Origin: a virus
Strand: one strand, 5' to 3'
DNA length: 64,000 nucleotides
IMG/VR virus record: IMGVR_UViG_3300043446_003177
Location: 1 to 64,000 of that record
Shown here: in pieces, positions 41,042-43,377 of the stretch
How the letters are laid out: the number at the start of each line of letters is the position of its first letter
How positions within the stretch are numbered: the first letter of the stretch is position 1
The notes under the pieces: generated by a model
What the model saw: the letters and a program-made list of their open reading frames with translations, nothing else
The model's database searches: none
What the model was told of the DNA's origin: nothing
Program-made: the position numbers and the translations under genes

Positions 41042-42127
41042 ATGAAAGAACATTACATATTTACTAGTGAGTCTGTAAGTGACGGTCATCCAGATAAAGT
41101 AGCAGATCAAATTTCTGATGCTTTGCTGGATTCTGCTTTGCAAAATGGAGATGAAACTACTAGAGTTGCTATTGAAACATTGGTAACTACTAATCATGTT
41201 ACCGTTGCAGGTGAAGTCAAAAACTTTAATGTTTCTGAACCTGAGATCGAAAATATTATCAGAACCAAAGTAAAAGAGATTGGATATGAGCAATCTGGAT
41301 TTGATTGGAAAGATTTAAAAATCAATAATCTTATTCATAGTCAAAGTGCTGATATTGCTTTAGGCACTGATGACTTTGGTGCTGGCGATCAGGGCATCAT
41401 GTTTGGTTATGCTTGCAATGATAATGAAGCATTTATGCCTGCTCCAATTTACTATGCACACAATATCTTAAAAGAACTGAAAAAGATCCGAGAAGGAAGT
41501 ATTCTTGGACCAGACGCTAAATCACAAGTTAGTGTTCAGTATGATGGTGGAGTTCCTAAAAGAATTGATCAGGTTGTGATTTCTTCACAACATGAAGATG
41601 GGAAAATTGATGAGGCTAGAAATCTTCTTAAGGAAACTGCTTTATCTGTTCTTGGAGATCTTGTTGACGAAAATACAGTTTGGCATTTAAATCCAACTGG
41701 AAATTTTGTAATTGGAGGACCAGATGGTGATGTTGGATTGACTGGAAGAAAAATTATTGTTGACACCTATGGTGGTTATGCTCCTCATGGTGGTGGCGCT
41801 TTCAGTGGAAAAGATCCTACTAAAGTTGATCGAAGTGCTGCTTATGTTGCAAGATGGTTAGCAAAAAATGTTGTTGCAGATGATATGGCGGATTGGTGCC
41901 AGATTCAACTATCATATGCTATTGGTGTAAAAGAACCAACTAGCATCTATGTAGACTCTAATGGACATAACAGAAGTATTCAAAAGTTTATTAGAGATAA
42001 TATTGATTTAACCCCTAAAGGAATCATTGATAGATTTAATCTTTTTGGGTTCACTAAATATAGTGAAAATTGTGTTTATGGACACTTTGGTGATAAAAAT
42101 GTACCTTGGGAGAAAATTGGATGGTAA
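41042..42127 (+). CDS. metK: S-adenosylmethionine synthetase
   Basis: [60 protein letters not shown] all intact. Confidence 0.97.
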
Positions 42128-43377
42128 ACTATGAAATCGCTGATATTGGATTGGCGGAACTTGGAAAACAAAGGATTGAATGGGCAGGTAGAGAAATGCC
42201 TGTTCTTAAGCAAATTCAAGAACGATTTGCAGAGGAAAAACCACTTGAAGGTATTCGTCTAGTTTCTTGTAATCATGTTACAACGGAAACTGCACATCTT
42301 TGCATTGCACTCAAGAATGCTGGCGCGGATTCTATGTTGATTGCTAGCAACCCTCTTTCTACACAGGATGATGTTGCTGCTGCTCTTGTAAAGTATTGGG
42401 ATATTCCTGTGTTCGCTGTTAAAGGTGAAGACAACGAAACATATGTTAGACATATTAATACCGCTCTTGATCATCGTCCTAATGTTATTATTGATGATGG
42501 ATCTGATGTAGTTGCAACTCTAATTAAAGAACGTCCTGAACAGATCTCTGATCTGATTGGAACAACGGAAGAAACTACGACTGGTATTGTCCGTCTCCGT
42601 GCTATGATTAATGATGGCGTTCTAAAGCACCCTGCTATCAATGTAAACGATTCTCAGACTAAGCATTTCTTTGATAATCGTTATGGAACTGGACAATCAA
42701 CTCTGGACGGTATTATTCGTGCAACTAATATTCTTCTTGCAGGTAAAACTGTAGTTGTTGCTGGATTTGGTTGGTGTGGTAAGGGTGTTGCTCTTCGTGC
42801 TAAAGGAATGGGAGCAAATGTGGTCGTCACTGAGATTGATCCCGTAAAGGCAATTGAAGCATCCTTAGAAGGATATAGAGTTCTTCCTATGCCTCATGCT
42901 GTAAGTGTTGGAGATATTTTTATCACTGTAACTGGTAATAAGAATGTAATCACCTACGATCATATGAAGTGGATGAAGAGTGGTTCTATTGTTTGTAACT
43001 CTGGGCACTTTGATAATGAGATTGATGTAAAATCTCTAGAAGAAAAGGCATCTGAAATTAAAGAGGTTCGTCCTTTCGTTAAGCAATACAAACTTGAACA
43101 TAATGAAGTTGTGGTGATTGCTGATGGTCGTCTTGTAAATCTTGGTGCTGCTGAGGGTCATCCTTCTGCCGTGATGGACATGAGTTTCGCAAATCAAGCA
43201 CTTGCCGTTGAGTATCTTGTTCAAAATCAAGGTAAACTTTCTCCTGGTGTTTATCCTGTTCCTGCCGAAAAGGATAAAGAAATTGCAGAGCTGAAACTTT
43301 CTGCAATGGGGATTAGGATTGATAAACTTACCGAAGAGCAAGTTAAATACATCAACTCTTGGTCTGAAGGAACATGA
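42121..43377 (+). CDS. ahcY: Adenosylhomocysteinase (SAH hydrolase)
   Basis: [59 protein letters not shown]; ATG overlaps the metK stop. Confidence 0.97.

Follow-up and report, generated by a model that had tools for sequence, protein, structure and literature searches.

S-Adenosylmethionine (SAM) is the currency of DNA methylation and the cofactor of anti-phage systems such as type I and type III restriction and bacteriophage exclusion (BREX), and phages that destroy it, such as T3, are known. It is made from methionine and ATP by MetK, the methionine adenosyltransferase or SAM synthetase, and the methyltransferase product S-adenosylhomocysteine (SAH), which in turn inhibits methyltransferases, is split by AhcY, the SAH hydrolase, into adenosine and homocysteine. 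Viral copies of both genes are already known as auxiliary metabolic genes: metK and ahcY are among the 39 viral organosulfur families of such genes listed from IMG/VR by Kieft et al. 2021 (doi 10.1101/2021.01.05.425418), where, in the portions of that text covered here, viral metK is described as an abundant gene that is subject to purifying selection and whose expression was seen in a lake; metK also appears in other virome lists, e.g., that of Lake Baikal. Here we describe a coupled metK-ahcY pair at positions 41042-43377 of the first 64 kb (64,000 nucleotides, from here on “the window”) of the single, linear IMG/VR virus record IMGVR_UViG_3300043446_003177, which is 172,232 bp long with 36.6% GC. 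Judged from gene content and phylogeny, the gene that recurs in viruses is ahcY on its own, to which metK, drawn from a different viral lineage, is seldom added; a cyanomyovirus lineage appears to keep an SAH hydrolase, and in a few members also a SAM synthetase, beside a predicted SAM lyase domain.

The metK gene (41042-42127, + strand) encodes a compact viral type of MetK of 361 amino acids that scores 434 bits against the NCBI equivalog model TIGR01034 (cut-off, 309), also matches phrog_1569 with 395 bits, and has all three S-AdoMet_synt domains, namely the N-terminal, central, and C-terminal ones (PF00438, PF02772, and PF02773). In an alignment to the E. coli MetK 7ll3, the catalytic and ligand motifs are all conserved, and the gating loop of the phage protein is 5 residues shorter. 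The ahcY gene (42121-43377, + strand, ATG start) encodes 418 amino acids with the substrate and NAD domains PF05221 and PF00670, scoring 644 bits against TIGR00936 (cut-off, 498), 602 bits against NF004005, and 683 bits against the solved AhcY 7o5l; the EGHPS motif is conserved, together with the putative catalytic His/Asp/Glu/Lys residues and GxGxxG NAD site. Both are thus, as far as sequence can assign an enzyme, intact genes with intact predicted active sites. The automatic open reading frame (ORF) list had placed the ahcY start at TTG 42106, which we replaced by the in-frame ATG 42121, given that a GGGAG Shine-Dalgarno precedes the latter and that the N-termini of all AhcY homologues agree with it; therefore, ahcY runs from 42121 to 43377, and the last 7 nt of metK (ATGGTAA) are shared with the start of ahcY; the two genes are translationally coupled. 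The stop codon of ahcY in turn overlaps, as ATGA, the ATG of a 54-aa phage ORF (orf54, 43374-43538, + strand; phrog_2818, 101 bits), which is kept 3′ of ahcY in the related contigs L004, L033, and L034, and a 55-aa phage ORF (orf55, 40862-41029, + strand; phrog_38106) lies directly 5′ of metK, with both of these small ORFs belonging to phage-only PHROG families. The first-pass annotation of the window had already proposed intact, overlapping metK and ahcY genes of phage-like codon usage, placed between two small phage ORFs downstream of the tRNA genes, with ahcY coupled to the next phage ORF, and apart from the corrected start codon all of this was borne out.

By its T4-type core genes, the virus is classed as a T4-like cyanomyovirus (Kyanoviridae-like): its gp41 helicase shares 76-82% amino acid identity with the gp41 of Synechococcus and Prochlorococcus T4-like myoviruses, its gp32 DNA is 76-80% identical to Synechococcus phage gp32, a gp5-like baseplate hub is encoded just 5′ of the locus, and a sliding clamp is also present. 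No match to psbA (PF00124) was found in the 172-kb record, which is ~81% complete according to CheckV, and the gene may thus be missing either from the assembly or from the phage. In cyanomyoviruses psbA is typical, not universal, and, since it is not a defining gene, a record lacking it is still admissible as a cyanomyovirus. The GC content at third codon positions (GC3) is 0.185 for metK and 0.239 for ahcY, compared with a mean of 0.263 (sd 0.108) for the genes of this genome and 0.45-0.76 for cyanobacterial ahcY. Both genes are under strong purifying selection, with ratios of non-synonymous to synonymous substitution (dN/dS) of 0.085 for metK (window vs. the metK-bearing contig L201) and 0.06-0.11 for ahcY (vs. 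seven relatives). These low dN/dS values, together with the phage-like GC3, argue that metK and ahcY are long-resident and functional in viruses, and, being host-type genes flanked by and overlapping phage ORFs under purifying selection, they qualify as auxiliary metabolic genes.

The two genes differ in their ancestry and spread. A scan of IMG/VR for ahcY gave 39 viral loci, 34 of them at 74-94% identity and of low GC (0.33-0.42), and one AhcY variant was indexed in 108 blocks of an assembly collection. The closest cellular AhcY among the best matches from the GTDB species-representative genomes was 74% identical, and the best in about 200 Cyanobacteriota genomes was 75% identical. In a maximum-likelihood tree, 35 viral AhcY sequences, that of the window included, formed one clade (support 100), sister to cyanobacterial AhcY (support 99). 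The surroundings of viral ahcY are of at least three kinds: in about a dozen contigs it is flanked by the gp41 helicase and MazG genes; in the window and L004 it comes after the tRNA/orf55 site; and on contigs that reach 284 kb and also encode a T4-type Gp23, it is preceded by a phage-borne porin gene (OprB/SLH) with a hairpin terminator and lies next to PstS, ferredoxin, and glycosyltransferase genes. Because the viral sequences form a single clade spread over several contexts, ahcY is an old, mobile, and recurrent gene of uncultivated cyanomyoviruses, probably taken once from cyanobacteria and then moved among cyanomyovirus genomes. At two of the porin loci (L007:4449-5945 and L217:8464-9942), the OprB-family protein with its SLH domain is encoded directly 5′ of ahcY, the hairpin terminator is conserved, and genes for PstS, ferredoxin, a redoxin, a C39-like peptidase, and a lysozyme are found nearby; a phage-borne outer-membrane porin beside ahcY deserves a separate look. 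Two further genes were also observed: a truncated-looking UDP-glucose dehydrogenase of 270 aa (L208:7266-8078) and a nucleotide-sugar epimerase of 247 aa (L211:17270-18013), whose homologues turn up repeatedly near ahcY on further cyanophage contigs, where glycosyltransferases and a class-I methyltransferase are encoded as well.

The nearest relatives of the window MetK are 92% (on a 1.3-kb contig) and 84% identical (P0124), followed by hundreds of proteins at 70-82%. About 80 IMG/VR loci carry a MetK 67-82% identical to it, and their flanks share with the window phage distant polymerase/helicase similarity alone. In the MetK tree, the 82 viral sequences formed one virus-only clade with support 100 on a long stem, within which a subclade joins the window protein with P0123 and L201 (support 97). 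Cyanobacterial MetK is 50-53% identical to the phage protein, and any cellular MetK sampled about 50%. No GenBank phage MetK belonging to this viral short clade was found by tblastn of 50,697 phage records, where the matches reached at most ~52% over most of the protein; a single GenBank phage match at 60-80% did not recur when the C-terminal half was queried and was set aside. Therefore, from the virus-only clade and the low identity to cyanobacterial and GenBank phage MetK, metK came from another viral lineage and not from the host. Most contigs carrying a viral-clade metK are unlike the window phage, and two long ones, L204 (471 kb) and L215 (306 kb), are jumbo-phage-like and encode a B-family polymerase. 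As an observation in its own right, L204 also encodes a GTP cyclohydrolase I and a radical-SAM protein and L215 a 6-pyruvoyl-tetrahydropterin synthase (PTPS, QueD-like), a gene set suggestive of 7-deazaguanine DNA modification in which a radical-SAM QueE would need SAM. Taken together, the two genes offer a clean example of the traffic of auxiliary metabolic genes, virus-to-virus for metK and host-to-virus for ahcY.

The coupled pair is rare. In the co-occurrence survey that the first-pass annotation had proposed, metK was present in none of the 34 ahcY-bearing IMG/VR contigs, among them a 284-kb record that is 100% complete and others of 205 and 175 kb, and in the syntenic relative L004 an orf55 homologue is followed directly by ahcY without metK. 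One other phage population shares the junction, at a different site: P0124 is found on three assemblies from different samples (L201-L203, from ENA and Logan), in which metK and ahcY likewise overlap by 7 nt and the sequence ...CCTTGGGAGAAAATTGG|ATGGTAA at their junction matches that of the window exactly. In L201, the gp41 helicase gene precedes the pair. The MetK of the window also recurs without change in another run, L225, with the same 7-nt overlap geometry, although the 26-residue ORF downstream was not identified there. As the same junction recurs in independent assemblies, the pair was formed once and is no assembly artefact. The AhcY tree does not place the two metK-linked ahcY genes as sisters, and a sliding-window comparison for a recombination breakpoint within ahcY showed no clear mosaic; either repeated loss of metK or the transfer of metK together with the junction may account for this, and we favor neither. 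The pair lies outside the repertoire of cultured cyanomyoviruses, as the first-pass annotation had suspected, given that the tblastn of GenBank phage records found no ahcY match in cyanophages, and a search of the cyanophage literature on ahcY, adenosylhomocysteinase, and SAM synthetase found no account of the pair or of a cyanophage AhcY clade.

These same data bear on whether bacterial methyl-cycle genes reached the phage contig by host contamination or chimeric assembly, which the first-pass annotation had discounted. Adjacent metK and ahcY genes are indeed common in bacteria, e.g., in Acidobacteriota and Chloroflexota, but the overlapping phage flank genes, the phage-like GC3, the virus-only clades of both proteins, and the junction seen in independent assemblies refute this origin, to which we assign a practically negligible probability.

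Regarding expression, the pair would belong to a single unit read by the host polymerase from sigma-70-like promoters. A candidate start of this unit is the promoter at 39751-39779 (+ strand; TTGACG-17-TATAAT with TG, 11/12 consensus) 5′ of tRNA-Gly, and a second promoter of the same kind is found at 40243-40272 (+ strand; TTGACC-18-TATAAT, 11/12 consensus) 5′ of tRNA-Leu(taa). They precede four tRNA genes, Gly-tcc, Leu-taa, Thr-tgt, and Leu-tag (40020-40858, + strand; ARAGORN, and Rfam RF00005 with 50-72 bits), then come orf55, metK, ahcY, orf54, and a gene for a 207-aa Mom-like DNA modification protein (43553-44176, + strand; PF25680, 87 bits; phrog_1384, 120 bits), and an intrinsic-terminator-like hairpin with a 12-bp stem and a T run (44192-44218, + strand) closes the unit. 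The Mom-like gene thus lies two places 3′ of ahcY within the same promoter-to-terminator unit, and the relative L004 likewise has one after ahcY-orf54. No T4-type late promoter box TATAAATA occurs within 39.7-44.4 kb, and neither a SAM nor a SAH riboswitch was found before metK or ahcY. Given a single sigma-70-like unit, metK and ahcY would be made with the phage tRNAs and not from a T4-type late promoter; their timing of expression is one that we infer from these signals. Farther upstream, the stretch from the baseplate hub gene to the tRNA genes holds two adjacent paralogous genes of 223 and 263 aa (window 35946-37408) that both match phrog_17490 and phrog_28536, and the genes after them are far more diverged in L004 (43-67% identity), marking a hypervariable island.

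The SAM users found are, by their family matches, an N6/N4 DNA methyltransferase and SpeD, the SAM decarboxylase. The methyltransferase is the only SAM-dependent one found in the record (genome 76705-77679, or L208:12705-13679; PF01555, 134 bits), and speD, which had correctly been located elsewhere in the window, encodes 108 aa at 14810-15136 (+ strand; PF02675, 117 bits; phrog_3125, 131 bits), 26 kb away from the pair. No radical-SAM protein, C5 methyltransferase, further class-I methyltransferase, speE product, or MTA/SAH nucleosidase (MTA, methylthioadenosine) was found in the 172-kb record. Hence, the first-pass suggestion that the pair sustains heavy methylation of progeny DNA is not supported by the single N6/N4 enzyme found, and of the other SAM-consuming routes it had named, the polyamine one is represented by speD without a speE, and no radical-SAM gene was found for the remaining one. 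Among the relatives, Dam-type or N6/N4 DNA methyltransferases and speD were found in each of the three ahcY carriers with the most complete genomes, and all three also give a class-I methyltransferase match, which in G223 is below the Pfam cut-off.

With these elements in hand, we consider it probable that the pair is a genuine auxiliary-metabolic cassette that sustains the methyl cycle during infection for the SAM users of the phage, with an ahcY of cyanobacterial origin and a metK from a viral lineage. In this mechanism, metK and ahcY would be expressed together with the phage tRNAs from the sigma-70-like unit, and MetK and AhcY would keep the activated-methyl cycle running when the host supply falters, with the N6/N4 DNA methyltransferase and SpeD as the presumed beneficiaries, either of which may be the one that gains. 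AhcY would be of general use and MetK would reinforce it in some phages, metK having been joined to ahcY once, in a pair that occupies two genomic sites. The pair would presumably raise the SAM/SAH ratio, as the first-pass annotation had also proposed, and yet the phage seems to manage SAM rather than simply to raise it.

Several observations weigh against this cassette mechanism. Only one phage methyltransferase was found, in an inventory that is a lower bound because the record is ~81% complete; the co-occurrence of ahcY with methyltransferases is weak evidence because these enzymes are common in cyanomyoviruses without ahcY; and SpeD does not explain ahcY, since it yields MTA and not SAH. 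In addition, both promoters are consensus matches alone, with a count of such sites in the region that is not above the shuffled expectation, and a T3-type SAM lyase domain, described below, would oppose a simple aim of raising SAM.

The presence of speD suggests another use of the pair, in which MetK would feed SpeD with SAM to be decarboxylated for spermidine, to condense the phage DNA, and speD is indeed found both in the window and in 7 of the 10 larger ahcY-bearing relatives. However, no speE was found, the route gives MTA instead of SAH and thus leaves ahcY unexplained, and speD lies far from the pair and also occurs in ahcY-bearing relatives without metK, for which reasons we regard polyamine supply as a very unlikely main purpose. 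The wide distribution of ahcY by itself could instead point to salvage, with AhcY chiefly splitting SAH so that its adenosine can go into purine nucleotides and its homocysteine into methionine, in support of phage replication, and with metK added now and then to draw methionine through the cycle. In agreement with this, ahcY occurs alone on 34 viral contigs, many relatives have it in nutrient-acquisition islands (PstS, porin, ferredoxin), and it is not consistently linked to a methyltransferase gene. Nevertheless, SAH pools are small relative to the nucleotide demand, every near-complete carrier encodes SAM-dependent methyltransferases, and genes for adenosine kinase, adenosine deaminase, and methionine synthase were not seen beside ahcY, although no search was aimed at them, so we hold salvage to be quite unlikely as the chief role.

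The first-pass annotation had presented the pair as the opposite strategy to that of SAM-lyase phages, and this contrast fails because the window phage carries both: besides metK-ahcY, its genome is predicted to encode a T3-type SAM lyase domain, for cleavage of either SAM or SAM-AMP. The domain makes up the C-terminal ~170 aa (genome 146293-146703) of a very basic 375-aa protein (genome 145582-146709, or L212:1582-2709, + strand), whose likelier start is the ATG at L212:1594, and matches PF23780 with 59-63 bits (62.6 in one search; gathering score, 28). A phmmer search of the protein against PDB sequences gave no match. The domain was modelled from a 53-sequence alignment with a mean predicted local distance difference test (pLDDT) of 86, while a single-sequence AlphaFold prediction gave a pLDDT of 49, and Foldseek placed the T3 SAM lyase first for this model (8bb1_E, E=1e-5, template modelling score 0.70; 7ock), followed by Svi3-3 (6zm9), with the SAM-AMP lyase 9gab matching weakly (E 0.14). 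The domain of the window phage has G71, Y73, E87, Q115, D116, and S117, which vary little or not at all among the 53 homologues and agree with the Gly-x-Tyr, Glu, and Gln-(Asp/Glu)-Ser reported as the conserved SAM-binding residues of SAM lyases (PMC7877911). The domain is frequent in cyanophage-like sequences (977 matches in one search), including the cultured S-H34, S-N03, S-CREM2, and P-TIM68, and in cultured cyanophages the homologues either stand alone as proteins of ~170 aa or are fused to N-terminal parts that vary. As for MetK itself, binding by the T3 SAMase was reported to be specific to the enterobacterial enzyme (PMC8406200).

This make-and-break gene set suggests a temporal scheme, in which a late-made, virion-carried lyase would deplete the host of SAM on entry and thereby disable defences that depend on it, e.g., type I/III restriction and BREX, and MetK and AhcY, made early, would then rebuild a methyl cycle under phage control, with metK serving as the antidote to the lyase of the phage itself. 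As a self-antidote, metK would have an explanation for its rarity as an add-on to the commoner ahcY. The scheme draws on the lyase domain being in the same genome (Pfam match, fold match, and conserved G-x-Y, Glu, and Q-D-S) and together with ahcY in 3 of the 10 larger relatives, on the late-type box GATAAATA ~20 nt before the ATG of the lyase-domain protein, in contrast to the sigma-70-like promoters ahead of metK-ahcY, and on the homologue in Synechococcus phage S-CREM2, annotated as “S-adenosyl-L-methionine hydrolase (virion protein)”. On the other hand, the packaging and timing of the lyase are steps that we infer, a persisting lyase would turn MetK into a futile ATP sink, and the substrate of the lyase is a predicted one, in a fold whose relatives have been reported to cleave SAM-AMP instead of SAM (PMC12255297). 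Furthermore, most lyase-bearing GenBank cyanophages have neither metK nor ahcY, and no lyase match was obtained in G210, a complete genome that carries ahcY; therefore, the lyase and the metK/ahcY genes are not obligately linked. On balance, we judge this scheme unlikely and retain the methyl-cycle cassette as the probable role of the pair. Should the enzymes be active at separate times, the phage would be a documented case of a virus that controls the supply of a central cofactor as well as its removal. Because the AhcY clade is present on many uncultivated cyanophage contigs, its influence on methylation and on the flux of homocysteine and adenosine in natural cyanobacterial hosts could be measurable.

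Compared with the systems already described, the window phage shares the same two enzyme families on viral contigs with the survey of Kieft et al. 2021; in the text covered here, that work reads them in terms of organosulfur and sulfide, names the pairs metK+dcm and luxS+mtnN and not metK+ahcY, and does not describe a coupled metK-ahcY, a cyanomyovirus AhcY clade, or a co-resident SAM lyase. The prophage metK genes in GenBank (from Streptococcus, Helicobacter, and Faecalibacterium phages) likewise represent phage-borne SAM synthetases, but their products are 45-52% identical to the window MetK, are of host-like origin, and have no ahcY partner. The speD of T4-like cyanophages is also a SAM-linked auxiliary metabolic gene, common to the window phage, and differs in using SAM for polyamines and in being widespread, whereas metK and ahcY were not found in cultured cyanophages. 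The metK-ahcY operons of bacteria contain the same adjacent genes, in Acidobacteriota in the same order as in the phage; unlike them, the phage pair combines two virus-only ancestries, has a 7-nt overlap, lacks SAM/SAH riboswitches, and is placed between phage ORFs behind tRNA genes. Finally, the lyase domain of the window phage has its family, fold, and ligand-binding residues in common with T3 gp0.3 and Svi3-3, and the T3 SAM lyase works in the enzymatic direction opposite to MetK; in T3 it is a small immediate-early protein, whereas in the window phage it is the C-terminal domain of a much larger basic protein behind a late-type box. Genes for making and for breaking SAM in a single cyanomyovirus form an intriguing set.

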